Shown here in pieces: positions 36,503 to 55,232 of a DNA stretch of 59,634 nucleotides. Every line of letters starts with the position of its first letter. Positions within the stretch are counted from its first letter, which is position 1. Below the pieces are notes generated by a model, which was not told the origin of the DNA, did not search any database, and saw nothing but the letters and a program-made list of their open reading frames with translations. The position numbers were made by a program, and so were the translations under genes. The stretch lies in NCBI GenBank assembly GCA_964392625.1, contig CAYMQG010000045.1, positions 1 to 59,634 of the forward strand, in the 5' to 3' direction. Source of the stretch: an uncultured Gammaproteobacteria bacterium (GTDB taxonomy: Bacteria; Pseudomonadota; Gammaproteobacteria; Steroidobacterales; Foliamicaceae).

Positions 36503-36547
36503 CCGGGGGAGGGCGTCCCGCCCTCCGGGAAGGCGAGACGCCTTCCC
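36503..36547 (+). repeat. Palindromic repeat copy A (double hairpin, intergenic)
   Basis: GGAGGGCG-tcc-CGCCCTCC (36508-36526) plus GGGAAGGCG-aga-CGCCTTCCC (36527-36547) between convergent stop codons. Confidence 0.85.
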
Positions 36548-36551
36548 TCCT

Positions 36552-37388
36552 CTAGGAGGTGTTCAGTTGCGCGATGCCGTGCCCGGTGCGTGTGCGGCGT
36601 GTGCGCCGGGTCTCCCGGCGGATCGCGAGATTGGCTGCTCGCGCCCGGGAATCCACGTAGCCGCGGGGATGGTCCAGGTGCAGGCAGGTGACCCGGTGGC
36701 GAATGCGCTTGCCGCGGATTCCGGCGTTTTCCAGACGCTCGCCCAGTTCCCGGTCTTCTCCACCGTAGCCCATCCGCTCGTCGAAACCGTTCGCCGCAAG
36801 AATGTCGGCCTTCCAGCCCGACGCGTTGTGACCGTTCCAGCCCGCGGTGGCCGGGGACATGCGGTCCAGCACCGCGCCGAAGCCGCTTCCGGCAGTGAGT
36901 TTGAGAAGCTTGTAGGTCTGCGGCATGCCGTGGCTGCGCAGCCATGAGGCGGAGAAACAGCGTCCCGCCGCGATGTCTTCCGCCCGGATGTTGTGCGACA
37001 GTCCCAGCGGCAACCTGAGCAGGCCGCCCGAGAGGAAACGCCGCGGCGCGGCCAGGTCGAGATGCCGGGCCACGAATTCCGGCTGCGGGATGCAGTCCCC
37101 GTCGGTAAAGATCAGGTAATCGCCACGCGCCCTGGCGATGGCCTTGTTCAGGATCCGGCACTTGCGGAAGCCGCGATCCTCCTGCCGGACGTGCTCGATC
37201 TCAAGTCCGGCGCCGCTGCGGGCATTGCGGATGACTTCGGCCGTGTCCTCGCCGGAGCCGTCGTCGGCCACGACGATTTCGAATTCCCGGTGGGTCTGAT
37301 GGGCGAAGCCGCAAAGTGTCTTTTCCAGCCACTCGGGCTGCCGGTAGGTGCTGAAAATGACCGTTACGTCACACGGACGTCCGCTCAT
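36552..37388 (-). CDS. Glycosyltransferase family 2
   Basis: STY, VVADDGS, NKAI, FTDGDC (DxD), NGFDERM.YGGED. Confidence 0.9.
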   Translation of the reverse strand: MSGRPCDVTVIFSTYRQPEWLEKTLCGFAHQTHREFEIVVADDGSGEDTAEVIRNARSGAGLEIEHVRQEDRGFRKCRILNKAIARARGDYLIFTDGDCIPQPEFVARHLDLAAPRRFLSGGLLRLPLGLSHNIRAEDIAAGRCFSASWLRSHGMPQTYKLLKLTAGSGFGAVLDRMSPATAGWNGHNASGWKADILAANGFDERMGYGGEDRELGERLENAGIRGKRIRHRVTCLHLDHPRGYVDSRARAANLAIRRETRRTRRTRTGHGIAQLNTS

Positions 37389-38050
37389 GCTTTACCCTGG
37401 CGCTCCGCCCCGTCGTCTCCATCGACGCGGGGAAGATCGTGCGGGTCCGGGACCACGACGCCCACCGAAACGACAAGCTTGATCGCGTCCTCCACGCTCA
37501 TGTCCAGTTCAATCAGGTCCTTCCGCGGGGCGACAACCAGGAACCCGGAAGTCGGGTTCGGCGTGGTGGGCACGAAGACGCACACGGAGTCCGGTGTGTG
37601 TTCGGCAAGCTGGCCCACCGTGCTGGACGTTTGAAAGGCGATGCAGTAGATGCCCTTGCGCGGGTATTCGATCAGCAGCACCCTGCTGAACGAGCCGCGC
37701 TTGCCGCTCAGGACCATCTCCAGAAAGCCCTTGGCGGCCGTGTAAATCGTCCTCACCAGCGGAATCCGGCGCAGGACCGCTTCCCAGAAGCCGATGATGC
37801 GCTTGCCGAACACGTTGGCCGCCACCAGTCCGGTGACGAACAGCAGCACCAGGCTGAGCACCACGCCCAGCCCGGGAATCGGGAACCCGAGGAGCGCTTC
37901 GGGCCGATAGGGTTCCGGAATCAGCCTCAGCGTCTGGTCGGCCAGGTCGATGAGCAGCTGCAGCACCAGTACCGTTATGCCGACGGGGACCCAGACCAGC
38001 ATCCCCGCCACCAGCACGCGCCTCAGGCGTGGCCACCAGCTCCTAAGCAT
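37385..38050 (-). CDS. DUF502 membrane protein
   Basis: Two TM segments, RIPLVRTIY, IEYPRKG, FVPTTPNPTSGF. Confidence 0.9.
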   Translation of the reverse strand: MLRSWWPRLRRVLVAGMLVWVPVGITVLVLQLLIDLADQTLRLIPEPYRPEALLGFPIPGLGVVLSLVLLFVTGLVAANVFGKRIIGFWEAVLRRIPLVRTIYTAAKGFLEMVLSGKRGSFSRVLLIEYPRKGIYCIAFQTSSTVGQLAEHTPDSVCVFVPTTPNPTSGFLVVAPRKDLIELDMSVEDAIKLVVSVGVVVPDPHDLPRVDGDDGAERQGKA

Positions 38051-38075
38051 TGCTGACGGGGCTGTCAGGCATGGC

Positions 38076-38405
38076 TCATGCGGCTGCTGCGTCGGATGCG
38101 GGGCTCGCGCCGGAGTCCTTGCCCGAGGAAGAGTCCGACTTGTCCTTGCCGCCGGTTTCGGATGCCGACTTGCCGGCGCCGTTTTCCGCGTCCTTTCCCG
38201 CGCCGTCGGGCTTGTCCCGCCCGCTGTTCTTGAAGTCGGTCTCGTACCAGCCGCTTCCCTTCAGCCGGAAATGCGGCGCCGACACGAGCTTCTTCAGACC
38301 CGGCCGCTCGCATTCGGGGCAATCGCTCAGGGGCGGATCGCTCATCTTCTGCAGCGCGTCCAGCCGGTACCCGCACTCGCGGCATTGGTATTCGTAGATG
38401 GGCAT
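38076..38405 (-). CDS. FmdB family zinc-ribbon protein
   Basis: MPIYEYQCRECG...CPEC...FRLKGSGWYETDFK. Confidence 0.92.
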   Translation of the reverse strand: MPIYEYQCRECGYRLDALQKMSDPPLSDCPECERPGLKKLVSAPHFRLKGSGWYETDFKNSGRDKPDGAGKDAENGAGKSASETGGKDKSDSSSGKDSGASPASDAAAA

Positions 38406-38440
38406 GGGAGCAGGAAACGAGCCTTGGGGCGGCGGCTAGT

Positions 38441-40204
38441 TTATAACGGACGCAAACCGAGTTCCCGCAGTTGCCCGGTTTCCACGGCGGCGGGCGCATC
38501 GGTAAGGGGGCAGGCGCCGGACTGCGTCTTGGGAAAGGCGATCACTTCGCGTATCGATTCGGCCTCGGCCATGAGCATGACCCAGCGGTCCAGCCCGAAG
38601 GCGATGCCGCCATGCGGTGGGACGCCGAAGTCCAGCGCCTTGAGGAAGAACCCGAACTGCCGGTCGGCTTCATCCGCCGAAAGCCCCAGCAGCTCGAACA
38701 CGGCGGCCTGCATGTCGCGCTGGTGTATGCGGATCGAGCCGCCGCCGATCTCGTGGCCGTTCAGGACCAGGTCGTAGGCGCGGGACGAGGCTTGCGCGGG
38801 CCTGTCCAGGAGCTCCTCCGGGGCCGTTACGCCGGGAGCGGTAAAGGGGTGATGGAGCGCTTTCCAGCGCTTTTCGTCTTCATCGAACTCGAATCCCGGG
38901 AATTCCATGATCCACACCGGCGCCCAGCCGCCGGCGATCAGGCCCCGTTCCCGCCCGAGACGGTCGCGCAGGGCCGACAGCGTGCGGTTGACGATCGCCG
39001 TCGCACCCGCTCCGAACAGCAGGAGATCTCCCTCGGCCGGGGCGGTCTTCTCGGTCAGCGCCGCTATTTCCTCATCAGCCAGGAACTTGAGCACCGGCGA
39101 CTGCATTCCGTCCCGGCCACGGGCCGGTTCGGCCACCTTGATCCAGGCCATGCCCTTTGCACCCATCGCCTGCACGAATCCGGTCAGTTCGTCGAGTTCG
39201 CGGCGGGTCAGTTCGGCTCCGCCAGGGATCTTCAGCGCCGCCACGCGACAGGCGGGGTCCCGGGCCGGGGCGGAGAAAACCTTGAACTCCGCATCCTTCA
39301 GGACTTCGCTCAGTTCGACCAGTTCCAGTGGATTGCGCAGGTCGGGCGCATCGCTGGCGAACCGCCGCATCGCCTCGGCGTAGGTCATGCGCGGAAACGG
39401 ATCCGGCAGTTCCACGTCCAGCACTCCGGCGAACACCTCGCGCACGAGGGTCTCCATCAGTCCGGTCACTTCCTCTTCGTCCACGAACGACAACTCCACG
39501 TCGAGCTGGGTAAATTCCGGCTGGCGGTCGGAGCGCAGGTCCTCGTCGCGGAAGCAGCGCACGATCTGGTAGTAGCGGTCCAGTCCCGACATCATCAGCA
39601 ATTGCTTGAACAGCTGCGGGGACTGGGGCAGGGCGTAGAAGCGACCCGGCCGGTTGCGCGCCGGAGAAAGAAAGTCGCGGGCGCCTTCGGGCGTGGCGCG
39701 GGTAAGCATGGGCGTTTCCACGTCGACGAAGCCGCGTTGGTCCAGGAACGCGCGTATCGCGGCGAAAACCCTGTGGCGCAGACGCAGCCGGTCAAGCATT
39801 TCCGGCCGCCTGAGGTCAAGGTAGCGGTACTTCAGCCGCAACTCCTCGCTGGCGCCCTCGCCGTGGTGGAAAGGCAGGTCCCGCGCTTCCGAAATAATCT
39901 CCAGGTCTTCCGCCACCAGCTCGACTTCTCCCGTATTCAGGTCGGGGTTGGCGGTGCCTTCGGGGCGAATCCGCAGGGCGCCGCGGGCCCTGAGCACGAA
40001 CTCGGCGCGCGCCGCCTCGGCAATGGCGAAAACGTCCGCCTGGTCGGGGTTGCACACCAGTTGCAGAATGCCCTCCCGGTCGCGCAGGTCAATGAAGATC
40101 ACGCCGCCGTGATCGCGCAGCCCGTTGACCCAGCCGCACACCTCGACCTGCTGCCCGGCGTGCCCGGCGCGCAGTTCACCGCAGTAGTGAGATCGCATGT
40201 TCAT
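38441..40204 (-). CDS. aspS: Aspartate--tRNA ligase, probably non-discriminating (Asp/Asn)
   Basis: RDHGGVIFIDLRD, TPEGARDF, LPQSPQLFKQ, FRDEDLR, GGGSIRIH, PPHGGIAFGLDR. Confidence 0.97.
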   Translation of the reverse strand: MNMRSHYCGELRAGHAGQQVEVCGWVNGLRDHGGVIFIDLRDREGILQLVCNPDQADVFAIAEAARAEFVLRARGALRIRPEGTANPDLNTGEVELVAEDLEIISEARDLPFHHGEGASEELRLKYRYLDLRRPEMLDRLRLRHRVFAAIRAFLDQRGFVDVETPMLTRATPEGARDFLSPARNRPGRFYALPQSPQLFKQLLMMSGLDRYYQIVRCFRDEDLRSDRQPEFTQLDVELSFVDEEEVTGLMETLVREVFAGVLDVELPDPFPRMTYAEAMRRFASDAPDLRNPLELVELSEVLKDAEFKVFSAPARDPACRVAALKIPGGAELTRRELDELTGFVQAMGAKGMAWIKVAEPARGRDGMQSPVLKFLADEEIAALTEKTAPAEGDLLLFGAGATAIVNRTLSALRDRLGRERGLIAGGWAPVWIMEFPGFEFDEDEKRWKALHHPFTAPGVTAPEELLDRPAQASSRAYDLVLNGHEIGGGSIRIHQRDMQAAVFELLGLSADEADRQFGFFLKALDFGVPPHGGIAFGLDRWVMLMAEAESIREVIAFPKTQSGACPLTDAPAAVETGQLRELGLRPL

Positions 40205-40226
40205 TGAATGTGCAAGCGCCCCCGGA

Positions 40227-40246
40227 CTGCCGCCGGGCGGCGGCAG
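40227..40246. terminator. GC-rich hairpin between the membrane-protein gene and aspS
   Basis: CTGCCGCC-gggc-GGCGGCAG; no U-tract, so role uncertain. Confidence 0.3.
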
Positions 40247-40270
40247 AGATGGGTTGGGTCCTGAATTCGC

Positions 40271-41218
40271 CTAATTCGCGCTGAGTTCCTGCTGCATCTC
40301 AGCCATGCGCTCGCGCTCCTTCTTGCCTGCCGGCATCCCCAGGCACAGCCCCACGACCAGCAGCGATGCGACGGCCACGGCGAGAACCTGCCAGCCGTAC
40401 TGCTCCAGGTTGACAAAGAAATCGTCCACCCAACCCCATCGTCCCACGAATTCATACGCGTTCCAGCTGATGATCGCGGTGGCGATCGAATACCGTAAGG
40501 CCGTGGCCACGCGCTTGAACCGCAGCAGCCGCCGCAACAGATAGATGGCCCAGACCGCGTTCAGCGCGGCGATTCCGTAAGTGACCGGATGACGCTCGCC
40601 GAGCACGTTCTCGTCATAGATCAGCAGCAGGAACAGGTAGAAGAACCAGATCAGGTAGATGGTTTCCAGCGCGGTGATCGCGGCGAAATTACGCTTGTGG
40701 CCTTCGGTGGGCTTGCCGGTTCCCATACCCAGCCAGCGCTGGCACCAGCGGAAGAAGTTGCAGCGGGTCTCGCGGTTGAACAGGAAGTAGACAAGGGTGG
40801 CGAGCATCACGCCCAGCGAGGACATCATGACCAGGTACTCCGGGTTGGTGGCCACCTCTCCGGCCTCGTCCAGGAGGGGCGCCACGCCCAGCCAGCGCGC
40901 GTAATAGACGAAAGAGAATTCCACCCACCCCGTCCACAGCAGCCAGGCGGCGAAATAGCCCAGCCAGGTGCCGCTGACTTCGCTGTCCTGGCGCATCCCG
41001 TACCAGAGCAGAACGGCCCCCACCAGCCCCATGACGCCGGCAAAGTAGTACATGCCGGGCTCGCCCATGGATTCCTCCATCTGGATCATCACCGAATGGC
41101 CGAGCCCCTGGGATATGAAGAACACCGCAAACGGGAACAGCCCGATGAACGGAGGGCGCGCGAACGCCCAGATCAGCCAGCTTCCAGCACTCGATTTTTC
41201 GGTGTTCTGCGTGTTCAT
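40271..41218 (-). CDS. Polytopic membrane protein of unknown function
   Basis: About 7-8 hydrophobic segments, normal codon bias; motifs LGH, WTGWVEF, ETIY. Confidence 0.8.
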   Translation of the reverse strand: MNTQNTEKSSAGSWLIWAFARPPFIGLFPFAVFFISQGLGHSVMIQMEESMGEPGMYYFAGVMGLVGAVLLWYGMRQDSEVSGTWLGYFAAWLLWTGWVEFSFVYYARWLGVAPLLDEAGEVATNPEYLVMMSSLGVMLATLVYFLFNRETRCNFFRWCQRWLGMGTGKPTEGHKRNFAAITALETIYLIWFFYLFLLLIYDENVLGERHPVTYGIAALNAVWAIYLLRRLLRFKRVATALRYSIATAIISWNAYEFVGRWGWVDDFFVNLEQYGWQVLAVAVASLLVVGLCLGMPAGKKERERMAEMQQELSAN

Positions 41219-41307
41219 TATCCGGCCACCGGCAAGCTGTCGGAAAAACCTATACTATAACCGTTCGAACCGAAAACTCGCCTTGAATCGGGGCCGGAGA
41301 AGCGCAC

Positions 41308-41769
41308 GTGGTGAAGATCGAAAACCTCAGGGAATGGGAGGGCCGCGAGCTCACTCCGTCGGCCTGGTTTGACGTGGATCAGGCCCGGATCGACTCCTTT
41401 GCGGACTGCACTGTGGATCATCAGTTCATTCACGTCGATCCCGAACGCGTGGCGCGCGAAACCCCTTTCGGGTCCACCATCGCGCACGGCTTTTTGACGC
41501 TGGCGCTTTCGGTGCACCTCGAGTCCCCCGAAATGTCGGAAATCGAGGGCATCGGCTTCGTCGTCAACTATGGCCTGGACAAGCTGCGGTTCATCAACCC
41601 GGTCCCGGTGAATTCGCGCGTTCGGGTTCACTCCACGCTTACCGAGGTCCGGGAACGGGGTCCGGGCCGCATGGTCATCCGGCTTGAGAAATCGATGGAA
41701 ATCGAGGGCCAGGAAAAGCCTGCCTGGGTAGCGCAACAGCTCTTCATGCTGATATCGCAGGACTCCTGA
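41308..41769 (+). CDS. MaoC family dehydratase
   Basis: FADCTVDHQFIHVDPE, TIAHGFLTL, NYGLDKLRF..PV. Confidence 0.92.
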   Translation: MVKIENLREWEGRELTPSAWFDVDQARIDSFADCTVDHQFIHVDPERVARETPFGSTIAHGFLTLALSVHLESPEMSEIEGIGFVVNYGLDKLRFINPVPVNSRVRVHSTLTEVRERGPGRMVIRLEKSMEIEGQEKPAWVAQQLFMLISQDS

Positions 41770-41779
41770 TCCCAGCCGC

Positions 41780-42547
41780 GTGGACGAACTGTTCAACCTG
41801 GAGGGCCGCACGGCGCTGATCACCGGCTCCACGCGGGGCATAGGCAAGGCCATCGCCACGCGGATGGCGGAGCACGGGGCACGCGTAACCGCGTCCAGCC
41901 GCAAGGCGGATGCCTGCGAGCAGACCGCCGAGGAACTGAACCTGCGGTTCGGCAAGGGAACGGCCATTTCCGCGCCCTGCAACGTCTACCACAAGGACCA
42001 GGTGGAGGACCTCGTGGCGCGCACCCGCGCGGCTTTCGGCGCCATCGACATCCTGGTCTCCAATGTGGGCGTGAACCCGCACTTCGGCCCCCTGCTCGAT
42101 ACGTCCGACAGCGCCCTGGAGCGGATCTGGCGCTGCAACGTCACGGCCAGCCTATGGCTGAGTCAGCTGGTCGTTCCGGACATGCAAAACCTGGGACACG
42201 GCCGGATCGTGCTGATTTCCTCGTACGTGGGCCAGACGGCGCACGGCAAGATCGGCGCCTACGGCATGTCCAAGGCCGCGGAGATCCAGATGGCGCGCAA
42301 CCTGGCGCTGGAGTACGGCCGCGACGGCATTACCGCCAACGCGATCTGCCCGGGATTGATCAAGACCGATTTCTCGCGCGCCCTCTGGAGCGATGCCGAG
42401 GCCCTGGAGGGCTTTCTGGACACGACCGCGCTCGGACGGATGGGCGCTCCGGATGAAGTGGCCGGGCTGGTCGTGTTTCTTGCCTCGCCCGCGGGCGCCT
42501 ACGTGACCGGCCAGGCGCTGCTGGTGGACGGCGGCGTCCACGTCTGA
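41780..42547 (+). CDS. Short-chain dehydrogenase/reductase (DHRS4-like)
   Basis: TGSTRGIG, YGMSK (YxxxK), PGLIKTDFSRALW. Confidence 0.92.
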   Translation: MDELFNLEGRTALITGSTRGIGKAIATRMAEHGARVTASSRKADACEQTAEELNLRFGKGTAISAPCNVYHKDQVEDLVARTRAAFGAIDILVSNVGVNPHFGPLLDTSDSALERIWRCNVTASLWLSQLVVPDMQNLGHGRIVLISSYVGQTAHGKIGAYGMSKAAEIQMARNLALEYGRDGITANAICPGLIKTDFSRALWSDAEALEGFLDTTALGRMGAPDEVAGLVVFLASPAGAYVTGQALLVDGGVHV

Positions 42548-42583
42548 TCGCCTTGTACGGGCAACAGGGAGTATCCGTCACGC

Positions 42584-43567
42584 ATGCGCGCGCTGATCTG
42601 CAACGGCTATGCCGAGCGGCCGGAGCTTTCCCTGGGCGAAGCGCCCGCGCCGTCTCCGGACGAGGGTGAAGTGCTGGTGGACGTGCGCGCCGCCGGTCTC
42701 AATTTCTTCGATCTGCTGATGGTCCAGGGCCGCTATCAGCGGCGACCCGAAGTGCCCTTTACGCCGGGCGGCGAGGCGGCCGGCGTGGTTGCGGCGCTGG
42801 GCGAAGGCGTCGAAGGCCTGGCCCTGGGGGACCGGGTCGCCGTGCATGGCCGATCGATGTTCGCCGAACGGGCGGTCGCGCCCCGTCATCACGTTGCGCG
42901 CCTGCCCGCCAACATGAGTTTCGCCCAGGGCGCGGGGTTCTGCATTACCTACGGTACCTGCTACCACGCGTATAAGCAGGTCGCGAAGCTCAAGGCCGGC
43001 GAGACCGTCCTGGTGCTGGGCGCCGGTGGGGGCGTCGGAATGGCGGCGGTGGCGCTGGCGCGCGCCATGGGCGCGCATGTGATAGCGGCCGCGGGCAGCG
43101 CGGACAAGCTGGAACTGGCGCGTGCAATGGGCGCAAACGAATGTATCGACTACACGGGGGACGATTTTCGCGCCCGGCTCAAACGGCAGGCCGGCGGGCG
43201 CGTCGACGTGGTGGTCGATCCCGTGGGCGGTTCGTATTCCGAATCCGCCTACCGGGCCTGCGCGCCGGGCGGACGTTTCCTGGTGGTGGGTTTCGCGGCG
43301 GGCGAGATCCCGCGGCTTCCGCTCAATCTGGTCCTGCTGAAGACCGCGGCGGTGCTGGGCGTGCTGTGGGGCCCGTGGACGGACCGCCAACCCGGCGCCG
43401 CCTGCGAAAACCTTGAAGAACTGTCGGAACTGGCGGCAAGGGGCGCGATAGGCTGCCCCGTCGAGCGCCAGTTGCCGCTGGAGGAATACATGCTGGCCTT
43501 CGAGGCTTTCGCCAACCGGCAGGTCAGCGGCAAGTGGGTTCTGGACATGCAGGGAGGCGGATCATGA
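42584..43567 (+). CDS. NADPH:quinone oxidoreductase family (MDR) protein
   Basis: GLNFFD, PFTPGGE, VLGAGGGVG, DPVGG, VGFAAGEIP. Confidence 0.9.
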   Translation: MRALICNGYAERPELSLGEAPAPSPDEGEVLVDVRAAGLNFFDLLMVQGRYQRRPEVPFTPGGEAAGVVAALGEGVEGLALGDRVAVHGRSMFAERAVAPRHHVARLPANMSFAQGAGFCITYGTCYHAYKQVAKLKAGETVLVLGAGGGVGMAAVALARAMGAHVIAAAGSADKLELARAMGANECIDYTGDDFRARLKRQAGGRVDVVVDPVGGSYSESAYRACAPGGRFLVVGFAAGEIPRLPLNLVLLKTAAVLGVLWGPWTDRQPGAACENLEELSELAARGAIGCPVERQLPLEEYMLAFEAFANRQVSGKWVLDMQGGGS

Positions 43568-45663
43568 CGGCGCACGTGAGCGATCGCGGCCCTGTCCGGC
43601 TGATCGAAATGAATTCCCCGCCCGTCAACGCTCTCGGAGCAAAGCTGCGGGAGCCGCTCATGGACGCGATCCGGGCCGCTTCCGGGGACGAGTCGGTCGA
43701 CGCCGTACTGTTGTCGAGCGGTTTGAAGACATGGTGCGCCGGCGCCGCCAGCAAGGAGTTCGGCCTGTCCGAACTGCCCGCGCCCGAGGCTTCTCTTAAC
43801 GCCATATGCGACGCGCTGGACGAGTGTTCCAAACCGGTCATCGCGGTGGTGGACGGAGTCGCGTACGGCGGCGGGCTGGAGCTTGTACTGGCCTGCGACT
43901 ACCGGGCCGTTTCGCCACGCGCCCGCCTTGCCTTTCCCGAAGTCAATATCGGGCTGCTGCCGGGGGCCGGCGGCACCCAGCGGACTCCACGGCTGGTCGG
44001 CGTGGAACAGGCCCTGCGGATGTGCCTGGACGGCAAACCGGTAAACGCCCGCAAGGCCCTGGAAATGGGCCTGGCCGACCGGTTGCTTGAAGACGAACTG
44101 ATCGAAGGTGCCTGCGCCTTTGCACGGGAATTGCTGTCCGCCGGGGCGCCTGTGCGAAAGATTTCCTCGGGGCCTGGAAAGCTTCCGCGGCCGGGAGAGG
44201 CGGCCGAGGTCTTCGCCGGGGCCCGGCAACTGATCGCCCGCAGGATGCGCGGACGCGACTCGCCCGAGCTGATCGTGCAATGTATCGAGCAGGCCGTGGC
44301 CTGGCGCGACGATTTTCGCGCCGGCCTGGCCGAGGAGCGGCGCCGGTTCGTCAGTTGCCTTAAGAATCCGCAGAGCAGGGCGCTTTCGCACGTGTTCTTC
44401 GCCGAACGCGCCGCGGCCAGGGGCGCCGGTGGAGCCGCCGCGCGCGCCGTCGAGCGCGCCGCGGTGATCGGCTGCGGGACCATGGGCGGCGGCATCGCCA
44501 TGAATTTCGCGATCGCCGGCATTCCGGTAACGGTGCTGGAAACCGGTCAGGAAGCGCTCGAGCGGGGAATGAGCGTGGTGCGCAGGAACTTCGAGCGTTC
44601 GGAGAAGAGCGGTCGGCTGCCTTCGGGCGGCGCCGAGCGCTGCCTGGGGCTGATCACGCCCACTACCGACTACGACGCTCTTGCCCGGGCGGACTTTGCG
44701 GTAGAGGCTGTCTACGAGAACCTGGATCTGAAAACGCGGATTTTCGCCCGGCTGGACCGCACCCTGGGCAGCGACGCGATCATAGCCAGCAACACCTCGT
44801 ACCTGGACATCGACCGGATGGCCGAAGCAACCGCCCGACCCGGGCAGGTGCTGGGCATGCATTTCTTCAGCCCCGCCAACATCATGCGCCTGGTGGAAGT
44901 CATCGAGGGCCGGCACAGTTCGGCGGAGGCTGTCGCGACCGCGTTTTCGCTTGCATCGCGCATGAAGAAGATTCCCGTGTGGTCGGCCAACAGCAACGGA
45001 TTCATCGGTAACCGCATGTTGTCGGGATACATGTTCGAGGCCTTTGAGTTGCTGTTCGAGGGTACGCCGCCGGAGTCGGTCGACGCGGCCCTGCGGGACT
45101 TCGGGCTTCCCATGGGACCTTTCCAGATGGCCGACCTGGTGGGCCTGGACCTGGGTTGGCGGGCCCGGGAGCTGGCCGGCAAGCCGCTTGAGGAGCGAAA
45201 GCCGGGCGAGCGCCTGGGCGATGCCCTTTGCGAGCGCGACCGCTTCGGGCAGAAGAACGGCCGCGGCATCTACAACTACAGTCCCGGCAGCCGGGTTCCG
45301 GAACCCGATTCCGCGGTCGCCGGCCTGATCGGGGAACTGGCGGAAGAGCTGGGCTACGAACGTGGACCGCCCGCGGGCGGCGAAGAGATCGTCAAGCGAT
45401 GCATGTACCCGCTCGTGAACGTCGGTTCGGCGCTGCTTGCGGAGGGCGTGGCCAGGGCGGCTTCGGACATCGATGTCGTCTATGTCTACGGTTACGGCTT
45501 TCCGGCCTGGCGCGGCGGCCCCATGCACTACGCCGAGCAGCAGGGCCTGGACGCCGTGCTGGAGGACATTCGCGGGTTTCACGAGCGGTTCGGCGCGCGC
45601 TGGACGCCGGCGCAAAAGCTGGTTGAAGCGGCCGCCGCCGGCCGGGGATTCGGCGACGGGTAG
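43564..45663 (+). CDS. Bifunctional enoyl-CoA hydratase / 3-hydroxyacyl-CoA dehydrogenase
   Basis: PPVNAL, GGGLE, PEVNIGLLPGAGG; GCGTMGGG, EAVYE, SNTS, GMHFFSPAN, GFIGNRM. Confidence 0.93.
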   Translation: MTAHVSDRGPVRLIEMNSPPVNALGAKLREPLMDAIRAASGDESVDAVLLSSGLKTWCAGAASKEFGLSELPAPEASLNAICDALDECSKPVIAVVDGVAYGGGLELVLACDYRAVSPRARLAFPEVNIGLLPGAGGTQRTPRLVGVEQALRMCLDGKPVNARKALEMGLADRLLEDELIEGACAFARELLSAGAPVRKISSGPGKLPRPGEAAEVFAGARQLIARRMRGRDSPELIVQCIEQAVAWRDDFRAGLAEERRRFVSCLKNPQSRALSHVFFAERAAARGAGGAAARAVERAAVIGCGTMGGGIAMNFAIAGIPVTVLETGQEALERGMSVVRRNFERSEKSGRLPSGGAERCLGLITPTTDYDALARADFAVEAVYENLDLKTRIFARLDRTLGSDAIIASNTSYLDIDRMAEATARPGQVLGMHFFSPANIMRLVEVIEGRHSSAEAVATAFSLASRMKKIPVWSANSNGFIGNRMLSGYMFEAFELLFEGTPPESVDAALRDFGLPMGPFQMADLVGLDLGWRARELAGKPLEERKPGERLGDALCERDRFGQKNGRGIYNYSPGSRVPEPDSAVAGLIGELAEELGYERGPPAGGEEIVKRCMYPLVNVGSALLAEGVARAASDIDVVYVYGYGFPAWRGGPMHYAEQQGLDAVLEDIRGFHERFGARWTPAQKLVEAAAAGRGFGDG

Positions 45664-45666
45664 CGC

Positions 45667-48300
45667 ATGACAGCCGGCGCACGGCCGTTGGCGGGGCATA
45701 CGCCGATGATGCAGCAGTATCTGCGCATCAAGGCGCAGCACCCGGACGCCCTGCTGTTCTACCGCATGGGCGATTTCTACGAGATGTTTTTCGGCGACGC
45801 CGAGCGTGCGGCCGTGCTGCTGGACATCGTTCTGACCACTCGCGGCCAGTCGAACGGCGAAGCGATTCCGATGGCCGGCGTGCCGGCGCATTCGGCCGAT
45901 TCGTACATCGCCCGGCTGGCGCAAATGGGTGAATCCATAGCCATTTGCGAGCAGATCGGCCGCCCGACGCCTTCCGGCGGTCCAGTAAAGCGCGAGGTCG
46001 TGCGGCTGGTGACTCCCGGTACGCTGACCGAGGAAGCGCTGCTCGACAGCGGGTCCGAGAACCTGGTGGCCGCCCTGTACGAGAAGGATGGCGGTTACGG
46101 TCTGGCCTGGATGGAACTGAGTTCCGGCAGCTTTTCGGTCACGGAATGCGATGGCCTGGAGGAACTTGAGGGCGAGCTGCAACGATTGCGGCCCGCCGAA
46201 CTGCTGGTCGGCGAGGGGGCGCGGCTGCCGGAGGCGCTGGCCGGACGGCCGGCGGTCCATGAACGGAGAAACTGGCAGTTCAGTACCGCTTCGGCGCGGC
46301 GTTCTCTTCAGGACCAGTTCCGGGTGCATAACCTCGACGGTTTCGGCGTGGAGGACATGGACCGGGGAATCGCCGCCGCCGGATGCCTGCTGGACTACGT
46401 CAGGGACACGCAGCGCGGCGCCTTGCCTCACGTGCGCGAGCTCACCGTGGAGAGGCCGGGCGACGCGCTGTTGATGGACGCCGCCACGCGGCGCAACCTC
46501 GAACTGGACCTTTCGCTTTCCGGGCGGGACGAATACACGCTGGCCGGCGTGGTCGACCGTTGCGTAACCCCGATGGGCAGCCGGCTCCTTCGGCGCTGGA
46601 TCCACCGCCCGCTGCGTTCCCACGACGTCTTGCGGTTCAGGTATCAGGCCCTGGACGAATTGCGCGGCGGGCAGGAGGGGTGGCGGGAGTCCATCCGGGA
46701 AGTCGGCGATCTCGAGCGGGTGCTCGCGCGCCTGGCCATTCGCACGGCCCGTCCGCGCGACCTGGAGCAGCTCCGGTCCGCCCTGAAGTCCGCGCCGGCG
46801 ATGCGCGAGCGGCTCGCGACCCTGGACGCACCGCTCCTGCAATCCCTGGCGGAGCGCATGGAAACACCGCCGGAAGGATTGCGTCTGCTGGCGGAAGCGC
46901 TGGTCGAGCATCCCGCGCCCAGGATCCGCGACGGCGAGGTGATCGCCGCCGGATACAGCGCGGAGCTGGATGAGTTGCGCGAAGTCAGCAGCAATGCCGA
47001 CGCCGCCCTGCAGGACCTTGAGAAGGAGGAACGCGAGAGCAGCGGCATCGCCAACCTGAAGCTGGGCTACAACCGGGTTCACGGCTACTACATCGAGCTT
47101 CGACGCAGCCAGGCGGAGGAAGCGCCGGAGCACTACATTCGCCGCCAGACCCTGAAGCACTCCGAGCGTTACATCACGCCGGAACTCAAGCGCTTCGAGC
47201 ACCGGGTCCTGGGCGCGCGCGAACGCGCCCAGGAACTGGAGGTGAGGCTGTACGAGGAGTTGCTGGAAAAATTGTCCCGCTGGCTGGCGGTCTGGCAGGA
47301 CCTGGCGGCCGCCGTCGCCGAAACGGACGTGCTGGTCAACCTGGCCGCCCGCTCGCTGGAACTGGGCTATGCGAGGCCGGAACTCACCGATCGTCCGGGG
47401 ATCCGGCTCAAGTCCAGCCGCCACCCGGTGGTCGAGCGCGCGCTGGATTCCGAGTTCATCGCCAACGACCTGGCGCTGGGCGACGACACCCGCATGCTGA
47501 TCGTGACGGGCCCCAATATGGGCGGCAAGTCCACCTACATGCGCCAGGTCGCGCTGATCGTGATCCTTGCGCACATCGGCAGCTTCGTCCCCGCGGCCGA
47601 GGCCGAGATCGGGCCGCTGGACCGCATATTCACGCGTATCGGCGCCGGCGACGACCTGGCCGGCGGACGCTCGACCTTCATGGTGGAAATGACGGAAACG
47701 GCCAGCATTCTGCACAATGCCACCGGACAGAGCCTGGTGCTGATGGACGAGGTGGGCCGCGGAACCAGCACCTACGACGGGCTTTCGCTGGCCTGGGCGG
47801 CGGCCGGCCATATCTCCGAGCACCTGCGCTGCTTCACGCTGTTCGCCACCCACTACTTCGAATTGACCGCGCTGGCGGAAACCGCGCCGGCCTGCGCAAA
47901 CGTCCATCTGGACGCCGTCGAGCACGCCGGAACGCTGGTGTTCCTGTATTCCGTGCGCGACGGCCCGGCCGATCGCAGCTATGGGCTCCAGGTAGCGGCA
48001 TTGGCCGGTGTCCCGAGGCAGGTCATTGCGTCAGCAAGGCGGATGCTGGAGGAACTCGAGCAGCGTTCCGGCCGGCTGATCGAGCGTGGGCAGGCGCAAT
48101 TGCCGCTCACGCTCCCCGGGCGGGAGGGCGTCCCGCCCTCCGCGAAGGCGGGGCGCCTTCGCGCCCAGGAATTTCATTCGAGGGCCGAGCAATTGCTGGC
48201 GGGGGTGGATCCCGAACAGCTCAGTCCGCGCGAGGCGCTGGATCTGCTGTTCGAACTGAAAGGAGGAAGCGGGGGAGAAAATGAGCGAGCGGGAGATTAG
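45667..48300 (+). CDS. mutS: DNA mismatch repair protein MutS
   Basis: [55 protein letters not shown]. Confidence 0.98.
48115..48169 (+). repeat. Palindromic repeat copy B (cruciform, in frame within mutS)
   Basis: CCCGGGCG-GGAGGGCG-tcc-CGCCCTCC-GCGAAGGCG-ggg-CGCCTTCGC-GCCCAGG; encodes [18 protein letters not shown]. Confidence 0.85.
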
Positions 48301-48784: not shown

Positions 48785-48840
48785 TGCGAAAGGGCTTTTT
48801 TCGGCGATTTCGGGTCCGCCTGCCAATAACCCGCTCAAGC

Positions 48841-48868: not shown

Positions 48869-48920
48869 CGGCTATGGAATAATCTCGGTACCGGGACCTG
48901 AGCGGGAGCACTTGAGCACA

Positions 48921-49941
<1,021 letters not shown>

Positions 49942-49949
<8 letters not shown>

Positions 49950-50391
49950 ACGTTCCGCCCTGGACGCAGCCCTGAACCTGCTGGCCCGGCGTGAACATTC
50001 CTTACGGGAATTGCGAACCAAGCTCTCTTCACGAGGCTACGAGGCGGGCGAAATCGGCAGGACGCTGGACCGGCTCGCCGGGCGCGATCTGGTCAGCGAC
50101 GAACGTTTCGCCGAGGCTTTTCTGCGTTCCCGCCTGGAGCGCGGGCAGGGGCCTCTCAGGATACGCGCGCAACTGAGGGAGCGGGGCGTGGGTGCGCCGC
50201 TGATCGACGCGGTCCTGAAAGAAGCGGAAGTCGACTGGGACCGGTGCGCGGCAACGGCGCGAAGCCGGCGCTTCGGCGAGGGGCCGCCCGGCGACCGTGA
50301 GGAAATGGCGCGGCAGGCGAGATTCCTGCGCGGCCGCGGGTTTTCGGAGGGACAGGTGGTGCGCGCCGTGCTGCGCGAAGACGCGCGATGA
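49942..50391 (+). CDS. recX: RecA regulator RecX
   Basis: [30 protein letters not shown]; follows recA. Confidence 0.93.
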
Positions 50392-53018
50392 AAACGGCCG
50401 AGATACGCTCCTCCTTCGTGGAGTTCTTTGCCGGGCGCGACCACCGGCATCTGCCCGGCTCGCCGCTGGTTCCGCGCAACGACCCCACGCTTCTGTTCAC
50501 CAACTCCGGGATGGTGCAGTTCAAGGACATCTTCCTTGGCCGCGAGCAACCGCCGCACCCGCGGGCCGTGACCGTGCAGCGCTGCCTGAGGGCTGGCGGC
50601 AAGCACAACGACCTGGAGAACGTGGGCTACACCGCCCGCCATCATACGTTCTTCGAGATGCTGGGCAATTTCAGCTTCGGCGACTATTTCAAGCGGGAGG
50701 CCGTTCGCCTGGCCTGGGATTTCGTGACCCGCGACCTGGGCCTGCCGCCCGAAAAGCTCCTCGTCACCATCTACGAGGACGACGACGAGGCGGAGCAATG
50801 CTGGCGGGAGGAGGCCGGTATCGAGGAATCGCGGATCATCCGGCTGGGCGGTTCCGGCAACTTCTGGTCGATGGGCGATACCGGCCCCTGCGGCCCCTGC
50901 TCTGAGATCTTCTACGACCACGGCCCGGACGTGGCTGGCGGCCCGCCGGGCAGCGCCGAGGAGGAAGGCGACCGCTTCGTGGAGATCTGGAACCTCGTGT
51001 TCATGCAGTACGACCGCGACGCCGAAGGCAATCTCACCGACCTGCCGAAGCCTTCCGTGGACACCGGCATGGGCCTGGAGCGCACGGCCGCGGTGTTGCA
51101 GGGCGTCAGCAGCAACTACGAAATCGACCTGTTCCGCGATCTCATCTCGGCCGCCGGCGAAATCACCGCTACGGGCGACCTCGGGTCCGACTCGCTGAAG
51201 GTCATCGCCGATCATTCTCGCGCGGCGGCCTTCCTCGTAAGCGACGGCGTTTTTCCGTCCAACGAGGGACGGGGCTACGTGCTGCGCCGCATCATTCGGC
51301 GCGCGCTGCGCCACGGCCACGATCTCGGCGTCAACGATGCCTTCCTCTACCGGATGGTTGGGCCCATTGAAGACGCGATGGGCGCGGCCTTTCCGGAACT
51401 GGGGGAATCGCGCGAGCTGGCCGAGCGGGTGCTGCGTGCCGAGGAAGAGCGGTTCGCGGCGACCCTGGAGCAGGGCATGCGCTACCTGAACCGGACTCTG
51501 GAGGACGTGCGCGACGGGGTGATTCCGGGCGAGAAGGCTTTCGTCCTGTACGACACCTATGGTTTCCCCGTGGACCTCACCGCCGATATTGCGCGCGGCC
51601 GCGGGCTCTCCGTGGACATGCCGGGTTACGATGCCGCGATGGCCCGGCAGCGAGAGCGGTCCCGCAAGTCTTCCGGCATGAGCGTGCAGCAAGACAATTC
51701 GCCCGGGGGCGAGGGCGTTCCGCCCTCGACTATTACCGCGAGCGAGTTTACGGGGTATGAGCGCCTGCAGAACCCCGCGCGCGTGATCGGAATCCGCAGC
51801 GGCGGCGAGGCGGCGGAGCAGGCGGAGCAGGGCGAAACGGCCGAAGTGGTGCTGGACCGCACGCCGTTCTACGCCGAAAGCGGCGGGCAGGTGGGTGACA
51901 CCGGCATTCTGGCCGGCGACGGACTGCGCTTCGAGGTCCGGGACACGCAGCAAACATCGGCCGGACGCGCACACATCGGCGTGCTGGCCGACGGAACCCT
52001 GCGCGTGGGCGACGAGGTGACCGCCACGGTGGACGCCGGGCGGCGCCGGGCCGTCGTTCTGAACCATTCGGCCACGCACCTGATGAACGCGGCGCTGCGC
52101 AAAGTTCTGGGGAAGCACGTGGCGCAGAAGGGCTCGCTGGTGGCGCCGGACCGCCTGCGGTTCGATTTTTCGCATTTCGAGGCGGTATCGCCGGAAGACC
52201 TCGAGCGCATCGAGGACGAAGTCAACGAGCAGATTCGCGCCAACCGGGCCGCGGAGACCAGCGAGATGGCGCTGGACGAGGCCATCGACGCGGGTGCCCT
52301 GTCCATGGCGGGCGAAGACTATGCGGAGAAGGTCCGGGTGCTGAAGCTGGGCGATTACTCGATGGAACTGTGCGGCGGCACGCACGTGCGGCGGACCGGC
52401 GACATCGGACTGTTCGCCATCGTCTCGGAATCCTCCGTCGCCGCCGGCGTGCGCCGCATCGAGGCGCTCACCGGGGCGGGGGCCTTCGAGTGGGTGCGGA
52501 ACCTGCGTCACCGAATGGGCCGTCTCGCGGGACTGCTCAAGGGCGGCGCCGACGATTCGGAAGAAAAACTCAAGGCGCTGATGAAACGCGCCAGGGAAGT
52601 GGAAAAGAACCTTGCGCAGGCGCGTGCGCGCCTGGCCGAGGGCGGCGGCGCGGCAGCCGTGCCGGTCACGCAAATTGCCGGCATCAATCTCGTGGCCATG
52701 CAACTCGATGGCGACGCCGATATGGACACGATGCGCGGCGCGGTCGACCGCTACAGGGATCGATACGAGCCGGCGGTGGTGGTTCTCGGCGCGCGCGACG
52801 GCGGCAAGGCCCGGATCGTGGCCGGCGTGAGCAAGGGCGTCCAGAAAAGCGTTCCCGCGCGCGATCTGGCGCGGGCGGTCGCGGAACAGCTGGGCGGCAA
52901 GGGAGGCGGCCGGGCCGACTTTGCGCAAGGGGGCGGGCCCGACGGGAAGGAACTCGAGCGGGCGCTCGAACGCGTTCGCGGCTGGCTGGCGGAGCGCCTC
53001 GGGGAAACCTCCGGCTAA
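50388..53018 (+). CDS. alaS: Alanine--tRNA ligase
   Basis: DPTLLFTNSGM, RHHTFFEMLGNFSFGDYFK, DTGMGLER, editing motifs NHSATH and ELCGGTH, GGKGGG. Confidence 0.98.
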   Translation: MKTAEIRSSFVEFFAGRDHRHLPGSPLVPRNDPTLLFTNSGMVQFKDIFLGREQPPHPRAVTVQRCLRAGGKHNDLENVGYTARHHTFFEMLGNFSFGDYFKREAVRLAWDFVTRDLGLPPEKLLVTIYEDDDEAEQCWREEAGIEESRIIRLGGSGNFWSMGDTGPCGPCSEIFYDHGPDVAGGPPGSAEEEGDRFVEIWNLVFMQYDRDAEGNLTDLPKPSVDTGMGLERTAAVLQGVSSNYEIDLFRDLISAAGEITATGDLGSDSLKVIADHSRAAAFLVSDGVFPSNEGRGYVLRRIIRRALRHGHDLGVNDAFLYRMVGPIEDAMGAAFPELGESRELAERVLRAEEERFAATLEQGMRYLNRTLEDVRDGVIPGEKAFVLYDTYGFPVDLTADIARGRGLSVDMPGYDAAMARQRERSRKSSGMSVQQDNSPGGEGVPPSTITASEFTGYERLQNPARVIGIRSGGEAAEQAEQGETAEVVLDRTPFYAESGGQVGDTGILAGDGLRFEVRDTQQTSAGRAHIGVLADGTLRVGDEVTATVDAGRRRAVVLNHSATHLMNAALRKVLGKHVAQKGSLVAPDRLRFDFSHFEAVSPEDLERIEDEVNEQIRANRAAETSEMALDEAIDAGALSMAGEDYAEKVRVLKLGDYSMELCGGTHVRRTGDIGLFAIVSESSVAAGVRRIEALTGAGAFEWVRNLRHRMGRLAGLLKGGADDSEEKLKALMKRAREVEKNLAQARARLAEGGGAAAVPVTQIAGINLVAMQLDGDADMDTMRGAVDRYRDRYEPAVVVLGARDGGKARIVAGVSKGVQKSVPARDLARAVAEQLGGKGGGRADFAQGGGPDGKELERALERVRGWLAERLGETSG
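51702..51728 (+). repeat. Palindromic repeat copy C (single hairpin, in frame within alaS)
   Basis: CCCGGGGG-CGAGGGCG-ttc-CGCCCTCG; encodes PGGEGVPPS. Confidence 0.75.
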
Positions 53019-53074
53019 CGCCCGCCGGCCTTCCGCGCAATACAATTGGGCCGTTTCGGCCCGGACTGAATGAC

Positions 53075-54217
53075 ATGAGCCTGCTGCGGGACCAGCCCAG
53101 TTTCACGCTGGGCGTCGAAGAGGAATATCTCCTGGTGGATGCGGAAACACTCGAGTTGGCGGTGGATCCGCCGGCCGGTTTCATGCCCGCCTGCCAGGAA
53201 CAGGTCACGGGACAGGTCGTCAACGAACTCATGCGGGCGCAGGTGGAAACCGCCACCAAGGTCTGCGCCGACGTGGCCGAGGTGCGCCGGGAACTGACCC
53301 GGCAGCGGCGCGAGATCAACGCGGTGGCCGAGCAGTTCGGAATGCGGATCATAGCCGCGTCCACGCATCCCTCGGCGCTGTGGCGCGACCAGAAGCAGAC
53401 CCCGTCGCAGCGCTATGTGACGCTGCAGGAGGAAATGCAGGCTACCGCCAGACGCATGCTGATTTGCGGCATGCACGTGCACGTCGGCATCGAGGACAAG
53501 GACCTGCGCGTGGACCTGATGAACCAGTTCCGCTATTTCCTGCCGCATTTGCTTGCACTCAGCAGTTCCTCGCCGTTCTGGGAGGGTGACGATACCGGCC
53601 TGAGCAGCTTTCGGCTGACCATTTTCTCCGGTTTGCCGCGCACCGGCCTGCCGGAGGAGTTCAACGGCTGGAGTGACTACGAGCGCCACATCGAGACCCT
53701 GGTGCAGGCCAATGTCATCGAGGATTCCTCGATGATCTGGTGGGACGTGCGGCCCAGCGCCCGCTTTCCCACGCTGGAGACGCGCATTTTCGACCTCTGC
53801 ACTTTCGTGGAGGACACGGTGTGCATGACGGCCTTCACCGTCTGCCTGGTCCGCATGCTTTGGCGCCTGCGGATCAGCAACAGCCGCTGGCGCAGCTACA
53901 ACCTGCTTCTGATTGAGGAGAATCGCTGGCGGGCCATGCGTTACGGGCCCACCGACAGTCTGCTGGACTTCGGCAAGGGCACGATGGTGCCGTTCGCGGA
54001 GTTGCTGGACGAGCTGATCACGATGATTCGCCAGGACGCGGAGTTCTTTGATTGCAAGGAGGAAATCGAACACGCGCGCACGATTCTCGAGCGCGGCACC
54101 AGCGCCAGCCTGCAGCTGGCCGCGTATCGCCGGGCCCTGGATGAAGGCGCAACCGAACAGGAAGCCCTGCGCGAGGTCGTCCGCTTCCTGGTCCAAGCCA
54201 CAATGGATGGCTGCTGA
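53075..54217 (+). CDS. Carboxylate-amine ligase / glutamate--cysteine ligase 2 (YbdK family)
   Basis: FTLGVEEE, GMHVHVG, SSPFW, WWDVRP, TLETRI, ENRWRA.RYG; TACAAT at 53041-53046. Confidence 0.92.
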   Translation: MSLLRDQPSFTLGVEEEYLLVDAETLELAVDPPAGFMPACQEQVTGQVVNELMRAQVETATKVCADVAEVRRELTRQRREINAVAEQFGMRIIAASTHPSALWRDQKQTPSQRYVTLQEEMQATARRMLICGMHVHVGIEDKDLRVDLMNQFRYFLPHLLALSSSSPFWEGDDTGLSSFRLTIFSGLPRTGLPEEFNGWSDYERHIETLVQANVIEDSSMIWWDVRPSARFPTLETRIFDLCTFVEDTVCMTAFTVCLVRMLWRLRISNSRWRSYNLLLIEENRWRAMRYGPTDSLLDFGKGTMVPFAELLDELITMIRQDAEFFDCKEEIEHARTILERGTSASLQLAAYRRALDEGATEQEALREVVRFLVQATMDGC

Positions 54218-55196
54218 CGCCGCAACTTACCCGGCGGCCTGCCGGGTTTCGGTGGCGCCCATGATGCAGCGCACCGACCGTCATTGCCGCTATTTCCACC
54301 GGCTGCTGGCGCCGGGCGTCGGCCTGTACACGGAAATGGTCCACGCGCAGGCCGTCATCCACTCCACCGACGGTCGCTTCCTGAGCCATCATCCCGCCGA
54401 GCGTCCCCTGGCTCTGCAGCTCGGAGGCAGCGAACCCGAAGTGCTCGCCGCGGCCGCCGGGCTCGCGGCCGAAGCCGGATTCGACGAGATCAACCTGAAC
54501 GTGGGCTGCCCGAGTTCACGCGTCAAGGCCGGCCGCTTCGGCGCCTGCCTGATGCATGAACCGGAACGCGTGGCCGATTGCGTGCGCGCGATGCGCAGGC
54601 GGGCCGGGGGCCGACCCGTCACGGTCAAGACCCGCATCGGGACCAATCACCGCCAGGAGTTTTCGCATCTCGCGGCCTTTGCGCGGGCGACGCGCGACGC
54701 GGGAGTCGCTGCCCTGATCGTGCACGCCCGCATCGCCGTGCTCGAGGGTCTGTCCCCGAAGGAGAACCGCAACGTTCCGCCGCTGCGTTACGAATTCGTT
54801 TACCGGCTGAAGCAGGCCATGCCGGACCTGCCCATCGTCATCAACGGCGGCATATGCGCCAACAGCGAGATTGCGTCGCACCTGAAACAGGTGGACGGCG
54901 TGATGCTGGGCCGCGCGGCCTATTCCAATCCCTGGCTGCTCACTGCGCTGCCGGGCGCATCGCGGCAGCCCCGGACCCGCGCCCAGGTGGTTGAGGCCAT
55001 GGTGGAGTACGCCCGGCGCGCGGAGCAGAGCGGAGCGAGGCTCGGCGCAATCACTCGGCACATGGCGGGTTTGTATTCGGGCAGACCCGGCGCCGGAGCC
55101 TGGCGGCGGGCGCTGGCGCGGCATGTATCGGCGCCCGCGAGCGAAGCACGCGTTCTGCTTGACTGCGTTCCCGATCGTCTGCGTTACGCCGCCTGA
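54207..55196 (+). CDS. dusA: tRNA dihydrouridine synthase A
   Basis: VAPMM..TDRHCRYFHR, LQLGGS, NLNVGCPS, VKTRIG, GLSPKENR..PPL, INGG, GRAAY. Confidence 0.93.
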   Translation: MAADAATYPAACRVSVAPMMQRTDRHCRYFHRLLAPGVGLYTEMVHAQAVIHSTDGRFLSHHPAERPLALQLGGSEPEVLAAAAGLAAEAGFDEINLNVGCPSSRVKAGRFGACLMHEPERVADCVRAMRRRAGGRPVTVKTRIGTNHRQEFSHLAAFARATRDAGVAALIVHARIAVLEGLSPKENRNVPPLRYEFVYRLKQAMPDLPIVINGGICANSEIASHLKQVDGVMLGRAAYSNPWLLTALPGASRQPRTRAQVVEAMVEYARRAEQSGARLGAITRHMAGLYSGRPGAGAWRRALARHVSAPASEARVLLDCVPDRLRYAA

Positions 55197-55232
55197 GGCG
55201 GCCGGGAGGGCGGGACGCCCTCCTAGCCCAGG
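55192..55232 (-). repeat. Palindromic repeat copy D (inverted orientation, between convergent dusA and pckG)
   Basis: Minus strand CCTGGGCTA-GGAGGGCG-tcc-CGCCCTCC-CGGCCGCCTCAGG; overlaps both stop codons. Confidence 0.8.

Follow-up and report, generated by a model that had tools for sequence, protein, structure and literature searches.

The repetitive extragenic palindromes (REPs) of Enterobacteria, Pseudomonas, and Stenotrophomonas, together with the bacterial interspersed mosaic elements (BIMEs) and REP doublets forming hairpins (REPINs), are short G+C-rich palindromes that occur in tens to hundreds of copies, mainly downstream of genes and in inverted doublets, and that flank a single-copy transposase of the HUH/Y1 type, the REP-associated tyrosine transposase (RAYT), which is inherited vertically at one locus and lost repeatedly (group 2 and 3 REPtrons). 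These traits recur with a hairpin found at four sites in the stretch of 59,634 nucleotides analysed here (the window), which is contig C45 of the 2.34-Mb draft genome of an uncultured gammaproteobacterium (G000, the source genome; 113 contigs, 65% G+C, 79% completeness). With a probability of roughly 0.9, the hairpins are units of a genus-specific REP family whose RAYT is encoded elsewhere in the genome, a few copies lying in frame within genes and drifting neutrally. As far as the published excerpts considered below go, this is a lineage-specific variant of the well-known REP-RAYT system, intragenic REPs in repair and tRNA-synthetase genes having already been published (PMC3733652).

The cited papers are drawn on here in excerpt. 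In these, RAYTs are reported to recognise the hairpin together with a 5' GTAG, the last two tag positions being essential for cleavage (PMC8266576), GTAG or GTGG is called invariant and defining (PMC4690160), and RAYTs are described as housekeeping-like in their single-copy behaviour (PMC5581495). The closest form is the REP of S. maltophilia as excerpted in PMC8266576, a perfect palindrome of 8 bp around a 3-nt loop, with the tag directly 5'. The tag of the present family, C-Y-G-G-G-A-G, is not GTAG or GTGG, however, and only its last two bases (AG) match the positions that the same excerpt gives as essential for cleavage. A further departure from described REP-RAYT systems is the long N-terminal extension of the RAYT open frame, which contains REP units.

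Intragenic REPs were treated by Di Nocera, De Gregorio, and Rocco (2013; PMC3733652), whose excerpted text covers several species, names replication and repair genes and tRNA synthetases as frequent hosts, gives approximately 10-30 encoded residues for singles or dimers (20-30 for dimers), and thinks neutral insertion in flexible linkers likely. The units described below likewise lie whole inside known genes, as singles or dimers, in a different organism and with a different tag class from those of the excerpt, to which they add a history read from orthologues, with one gain and 8-10 species, and a rate test for neutral drift. Rickettsia palindromic elements (RPEs), which are CGTC-tagged REPs, offer another parallel, being short palindromes in frame in conserved proteins that they do not destroy; however, according to the excerpt of PMC3733652, repeats of the RPE type have CGTC at their end and lack a transposase of their own, whereas here CGTC lies inside the unit, at the stem-loop junction (91 of the 104 units found in the source genome), and a RAYT is present.

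The repeat family and its transposase

The sequence-only reading of the window had proposed a four-copy family of palindromes, lineage-specific, non-autonomous, and of REP/REPIN type, and had staked itself on further copies being found elsewhere in the genome. These are numerous: the exact hairpin occurs 43 times in the source genome, and allowing one mismatch yields 64 copies as opposed to 5-6 for two composition-matched control palindromes. An origin as chance or codon-driven palindromes was rejected, the reversed or swapped-arm controls giving 0 exact copies and 5-6 at one mismatch. A 33-nt position weight matrix (PWM; three iterations, threshold at least 14 bits), with the reversed genome as control, returned 105 matches as against 0 in the control, or 104 units once one overlapping match had been dropped. 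The units fall into 76 clusters (55 singles, 16 pairs, 3 triples, and 2 quadruples), and the pairs are oriented '+-' in 13 of 16 cases and '-+' in 0 of 16, that is, as tail-to-tail inverted doublets resembling REPINs and BIMEs.

The four hairpin sites claimed in the window (GAGGGCG-N3-CGCCCTC at 36509, 48124, 51711, and 55206) are all present, at 4 matches against 0.00 expected from 100 shuffles. The second hairpin reported at two of them (GAAGGCG-N3-CGCCTTC at 36529 and 48144; 2 matches against 0.01 expected from shuffles) is likewise there, not as a separate hairpin, however, but as another, inverted unit of the same repeat. With six units in four clusters by the PWM scan, 'four-copy' was too low a count even for the window. 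The CC(C/T)GGG-like sequence said to precede each copy is seen at 4/4 sites, and the flank columns are 81-94% conserved genome-wide. Two of the four sites are convergent spacers and the other two are intragenic; the units, and the genes that adjoin or host them, are as follows.

36497..36529, + strand: REP unit, first half of an inverted doublet (copy 1), in the convergent spacer between the M16 peptidase and glycosyltransferase genes; PWM 20.3 bits; exact hairpin at 36509
36525..36557, - strand: REP unit of the GAAGGCG subfamily, inverted, second half of the same doublet; PWM 28.2 bits; hairpin at 36529
48112..48144, + strand: REP unit in frame within mutS, encoding PGREGVPPS by translation; PWM 35.3 bits; orthologous unit in 8/22 congeners
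48140..48172, - strand: REP unit of the GAAGGCG subfamily, inverted, in frame within mutS by translation; PWM 27.5 bits; hairpin at 48144
51699..51731, + strand: single REP unit in frame within alaS, encoding SPGGEGVPPS by translation, in a hypervariable linker; PWM 32.5 bits
55202..55234, - strand: single REP unit (copy 4) in the convergent spacer between dus and the gene for GTP-dependent phosphoenolpyruvate (PEP) carboxykinase; PWM 24.1 bits
33737..36502, + strand: M16 family peptidase gene, left of copy 1 (Pfam Peptidase_M16, Peptidase_M16_C)
36552..37388, - strand: family-2 glycosyltransferase (GT2) gene, right of copy 1 (Pfam Glycos_transf_2)
45667..48300, + strand: mutS, host of the in-frame doublet (Pfam MutS_I to MutS_V; genus alignment)
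50388..53018, + strand: alaS (alanyl-tRNA synthetase), which carries the single in-frame unit at approximately residues 437-448 (Pfam tRNA-synt_2c, tRNA_SAD, DHHA1; genus alignment)
54048..55196, + strand: tRNA dihydrouridine synthase gene (dus), left of copy 4 (Pfam Dus)
55223..56965, - strand: GTP-dependent PEP carboxykinase gene, right of copy 4 (Pfam PEPCK_N, PEPCK_GTP)

Each unit is approximately 27-33 nt long (a doublet approximately 60 nt) and is made up of the 5' tag C-C-Y-G-G-G-A-G and an 8-bp G+C-rich stem, the consensus of the 104 units reading C-C-Y-G-G-G-A-G-S, the stem G-A-G-G-G-C-G, the loop T-C-Y, and the return stem. The loops had been taken to vary, which proved to be a strand artefact: once the units are oriented by their flank, one conserved T-C-Y loop appears (TCC in 62/104, TCT in 32/104). 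The inverted partner in a doublet mostly belongs to a subfamily with A:T, not G:C, at stem pair 3. Across the 104 units, 80 have G:C and 16 have A:T at stem pair 14-26, which is unpaired in the other 8 (Fisher p 4e-13); pair 16-24 has A:T, T:A, and C:G alternatives (p 8e-10), and the closing pair occurs as G:C in 34 units and as C:G in 24. When a subset of 34 of these units was shuffled 500 times, paired cells stood at 95.2% against 84.6 +/- 1.1 in the shuffles and two-sided changes at 25 cells against 6.3 +/- 1.9, neither observed value being reached in any shuffle (0/500), and slid controls all fell to 46-56% paired. The compensatory stem changes pointed out by the sequence-only reading are thus borne out by both tests; given that copies of a repeat share ancestry, the covariation counts show the stem to have been kept in amplified subfamilies, not the number of independent events. 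Folded as single-stranded DNA, each unit is predicted to form an 8-bp stem with a 3-nt loop, the copy-1 doublet two adjacent hairpins (-22.6 kcal/mol, z -3.85), and the mutS doublet two hairpins with an outer stem between the two tags (-25.5 kcal/mol). Stop codons are missing from all six frames in 78 of the 104 units.

By the calls of a crude codon-score gene caller (1942 genes, 89.7% coding), 57 clusters are intergenic, 18 overlap called genes, and 1 lies at a contig end; with about 90% of the genome coding, the REP clusters strongly avoid genes or are purged from them, though not completely. The intergenic clusters occupy unidirectional (30), convergent (21), and divergent (6) spacers, which hold 54%, 13%, and 32% of the spacer bases, respectively (chi-square p 1.4e-7), and the occupation of convergent spacers noticed in the window is accordingly an enrichment across the genome. 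Six of the gene-overlapping clusters are clearly internal, approximately six lie within 21 nt of a stop codon, and the rest are near 5' ends, where the called starts are unreliable.

The absence of a cognate transposase from the window, as first stated, holds; a Y1/HUH transposase flanked by copies, of the kind that it advised looking for, is encoded on contig C103 as the single RAYT of the source genome, with REP arrays on both sides. It gives the only match to Pfam Y1_Tnp (PF01797) in that genome (36.1 bits, cut-off 23), its open reading frame (ORF) of 226-232 residues displays the motifs H-V-H-V-L and Y-I-H-Q-N-P-V-K, and it scores 99.6 bits against the NCBIfam equivalog NF047646 'REP-associated tyrosine transposase' (cut-off 80), the IS200 model reaching only 21 bits. 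The sole PDB relative is E. coli TnpArep (4er8; E 2.9e-10), in an alignment that covers the HUH motif and the Y-I-x-x-N-P-V-K motif. Three REP units lie upstream of the gene, a four-unit tandem array downstream, and one unit inside the 5' part of the frame, the neighbours being ORFs for an SNF-type transporter and rplQ, with no large accessory ORF of the tnpB kind. Protein and Pfam family searches found one RAYT per genome in 5 of the 22 genomes of the genus (G000, G001, G002, G012, and G020), in all five directly downstream of the same SNF-type transporter gene and with 5-19 PWM matches of at least 14 bits spread over both sides; the RAYT-flanking REPs of G012 and G001 carry a compensatory change at the innermost stem pair. 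Among 16 RAYT-less genomes with the transporter gene, 14 have no unit in the 1.5-kb flanks of the gene, and the remaining two have one 12.6-bit remnant and one unit 1.4 kb away, respectively.

The RAYT frame on C103 (L001 1138-1818) begins at a conserved M-x-N-x-E motif upstream of the in-frame REP unit(s). The unit in question (L001 1193-1220) reads GEGGTPSLPG in the source genome, G012 having six to seven tandem units, and no ATG, GTG, or TTG occurs between the source-genome unit and the conserved core. One Latescibacterota relative likewise has an in-frame REP at its RAYT N-terminus and two others do not. As for gene order, rplQ lies upstream of the SNF transporter gene in G002, G009, G015, G018, and G004, and beyond the RAYT in convergent orientation in the source genome (L199, which is G000:C103:4863-8741, compared with L211, L214, and L217-L219); the REP arrays bracket the transporter-RAYT segment, which suggests an inversion between the arrays.

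Distribution and turnover of the copies

The exact hairpin is found in 17 of the 21 other species of the genus, in 1 to 546 copies where present (the highest being 546 in G002 and 362 in G020), and does not occur in 20 genomes that represent 20 other families of the same order; together with the RAYT and its REP flanks, this agrees with the lineage-specific, non-autonomous palindrome first proposed. The closest named relatives of the RAYT are those of Candidatus Foliamicus, at 70-77% identity, and the genus is probably this one; no paper on the genus Foliamicus was found. A tree from a quick search with MutS and AlaRS fragments, from which the insert columns had been removed, sets apart a basal group, 7 RAYT-less species with 0-3 copies each, from a group of 15 with 10-546 copies. 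RAYT presence changes three times on this tree, which fits one gain and several losses, and some of the absences from draft genomes could be assembly gaps.

Turnover is visible at single sites. The copy-1 spacer holds a doublet in the source genome and is empty by alignment in the sister species G003 and in G013, G007, and G006, as it is in G005, G014, and G016; elsewhere, it is occupied by different REP pairs (G001, G002, G020, and G008) or by a single unit (G021). The doublet of the source genome would most simply be a recent insertion in a lineage that has kept its RAYT. Where the site is empty, the M16 peptidase gene runs directly up to the GT2 gene, their stop codons overlapping within the palindrome CTAG (window 36495-36565 compared with L251, L249, L239, and L245), and at the filled site the last two residues of the peptidase are altered and the GT2 gains three residues. 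The copy-4 spacer contains intact doublets in G013, G021, and G011; the remnants that G014, G005, G016, and G007 have there are decayed, and in G003 and G006 the spacer shows deletions.

In-frame copies and the rival explanations

The earlier claim that copies add in-frame peptides to conserved proteins is upheld by six clearly internal hosts, each with Pfam matches and good coding scores on both sides: DnaX (tau), MutS, AlaRS, YchF, a GldG-like ABC auxiliary protein, and ValRS. The poorly scoring linkers of MutS and AlaRS hid both from local 150-nt codon scores, and spanning ORFs were scored instead. According to the translations, the same two reading frames recur among the hosts. In MutS, where domain V runs to residue 798, the doublet falls beyond it, in the linker that joins the C-terminal region, and the insert spans approximately residues 815-835. 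A cluster of units occupies the same position in 8 of the 22 genomes, a remnant persists in G021 and G011, and MutS is without the insert in the other 12, two of which (G018 and G004) have only a few extra residues at the site. One gain suffices on the two-gene tree, and the later changes among the 10 genomes are all frame-keeping, for example a 24-nt deletion in the source genome and an extra unit in G013. The latter (L091 1813-1845) is a near-consensus unit of 39.8 bits beside the old decayed cluster, in a genome without a detectable RAYT, and may have arisen by a second insertion or by conversion at a REP site already present.

The AlaRS unit is at the same site in 6 of the 22 genomes, and the linker that carries it differs in length and sequence across all species. 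In G016 and G005 (L122 and L123), AlaRS lacks the REP and its linker is like that of the distant congeners G017 and G008 and unlike that of close relatives, possibly through allelic replacement by recombination. A further REP doublet (L140 1592-1652, on G000:C52) encodes the C-terminal 20 or so residues of peptidyl-tRNA hydrolase, the Pfam domain ending at residue 224 of 254, and stands just upstream of ychF, which has another in-frame doublet (L140 992-1080). On the strand opposite mutS, a 1558-residue open frame runs antisense to that gene and its upstream neighbour (window 43249-47925, - strand); with a codon score of -0.02, compared with 0.42 for mutS, it was rejected as a gene and put down to high G+C content.

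By analogy with the TnpA-REP proteins of E. coli and Stenotrophomonas, catalysis would fall to the RAYT of C103, which would bind the folded, single-stranded hairpin, use the 5' tag as a guide for a nearby cut, and re-join the DNA, thereby spreading copies. Those that survive are found mainly in spacers downstream of genes, convergent ones above all. A landing in frame in a flexible linker of an essential protein (MutS, AlaRS, ValRS, DnaX, or YchF) can also survive, since most units are stop-free in six frames, and the intragenic insert then keeps its reading frame only and otherwise drifts neutrally.

The sequence-only reading went further and regarded the in-frame copies as partly domesticated, in other words the REP peptides (PG-x-EGVPPS and similar) as selected functional loops in MutS, AlaRS, and other proteins. 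The frame has indeed been kept through all indels in the 10 genomes with the MutS insert, which has persisted since the common ancestor of 8-10 species; the recurrence of the same two frames among hosts points the same way, as does the excess of replication and repair genes among REP hosts given in the excerpt of PMC3733652. A rate test on six genomes with colinear MutS inserts, comparing the 82-nt insert with 600 nt upstream, speaks against selection on the peptide: at codon positions 1+2, nucleotide diversity is 0.195 in the insert and 0.012 in the upstream flank, and at position 3 it is 0.146 and 0.152, respectively. The insert thus diverges at about the synonymous rate at all codon positions, which indicates that it is tolerated, with only the reading frame selected, and not functionally domesticated. 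In addition, the peptide differs freely between species, more than half of the congeners do without it, the AlaRS copy lies in a linker that is variable genus-wide, and selection on the host protein by itself accounts for the maintenance of the frame. The stems of the insert also gain mismatches in the mutS of relatives; within the source genome, intragenic units pair as well as the others (9 versus 95 units, Mann-Whitney p 0.56), so that the decay of the hairpins is visible only in the comparison of orthologues. Domestication as a selected peptide is therefore considered very unlikely.

Retention of the hairpins by selection as regulatory elements of the host (terminators or mRNA-stabilising stem-loops), not spread by transposition, would suit their predicted stability, the fact that 51 of the 57 intergenic clusters lie in spacers that are convergent or unidirectional, and the published REPs with such secondary roles in the excerpt of PMC3733652. 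However, no T-run of an intrinsic terminator follows the stem (T in 9-16 of the 104 units at the four following columns), a terminator needs no strand-specific conserved 5' tag, and such elements would hardly number from 0 to 546 among congeners, lie inside genes, concentrate in arrays around a RAYT, or differ as filled and empty sites between sister species; the explanation is very improbable for the family as a whole, and some sites may have a secondary regulatory role. Scarcely credible, with Y1_Tnp as the transposase family searched for in the genome, is a descent of the units from another insertion sequence with terminal inverted repeats (TIRs), as remnants or derivatives akin to miniature inverted-repeat transposable elements (MITEs), the RAYT being incidental. 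The inverted ends of the doublets, CCTGGGAG...CTCCCAGG, do resemble short TIRs, but MITEs measure 70-300 bp, with TIRs and a target-site duplication, and the units are far shorter, even as doublets, are mainly single (55 of the 76 clusters), and show no such duplication at the filled copy-1 site; furthermore, they flank the RAYT in 5/5 genomes, and RAYT relatives in other phyla have hairpins with the same tag and different stems.

The interpretation as a REP family served by its own RAYT has evidence to contend with as well. The canonical GTAG or GTGG, treated as defining in published work, is found in the 5' flank of only 5 of the 104 units. Twelve of the 17 motif-carrying congeners have no detectable RAYT, including the single-contig genomes G006, G008, G011, and G021, in which it was not found, and either most populations persist without the enzyme or draft assemblies missed it. 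The comparison of filled and empty copy-1 sites is no clean cut-and-paste, with extra non-repeat bases on both sides and no readable target motif. The evidence for transposition comes from the comparison of sequences, the tree is a quick search on two gene fragments, and the context counts depend on the crude codon-score gene calls.

The 5' tag among related transposases

In the source genome, the tag C-Y-G-G-G-A-G places GGAG next to the stem in 54 of the 104 units. The same tetranucleotide dominates around 55 relatives of this RAYT from several phyla: of 812 strand instances lying 1 nt from a perfect hairpin, GGAG is the commonest with 141, the next reaches 26, and GTAG is seen in 2. At 44 of the 55 loci at least two hairpins are tagged GGA[GAC], and at none (0/55) are two tagged GTAG; the flanking hairpins in other phyla have the same tag on different stems. 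RAYTs of Latescibacterota (L146-L149) are 60-65% identical to this one and are accompanied by nearly the same tagged hairpin, with the innermost pair changed and a loop of ATCCT or TCC. This likeness is much closer than expected across phyla and suggests a horizontal transfer of the REPtron.

A tentative proposal, which we consider possible but rather doubtful, is that these hairpins represent an undescribed, cross-phylum class of REPs with the tag C-Y-G-G-G-A-G, tied to a single RAYT clade that comprises Ca. Foliamicus, Latescibacterota, Acidobacteriota, Verrucomicrobiota, and Chloroflexota, and that the stop-free units, having lost the TAG of the classical tag, may explain the landing of copies in frame within essential genes, and even in the N-terminal part of the frame of their own RAYT. 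No paper naming a GGAG tag was found, and in the excerpts in which GGAG co-occurs with REP-associated tyrosine transposases, it figures only as a tetranucleotide count. If such a class exists, the hairpin in the 5' coding region of the RAYT could allow the enzyme to regulate itself. A non-GTAG tag common to related RAYTs in several phyla would in any case be a natural variant with which to probe the 'guide tetranucleotide' model of cleavage-site choice.

For the annotation of genomes, the REPs described here account for lineage-specific insertions of 10-30 residues and for C-terminal tails in conserved proteins, and the rate test marks in-frame REPs in essential proteins as neutral passengers, not new functional modules. 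The REP-RAYT system of this genus of uncultured gammaproteobacteria with reduced genomes is complete and can be dated: copy 1 marks the birth of a copy, the inserts in MutS and AlaRS have persisted for long, and decay has followed where the RAYT was lost.

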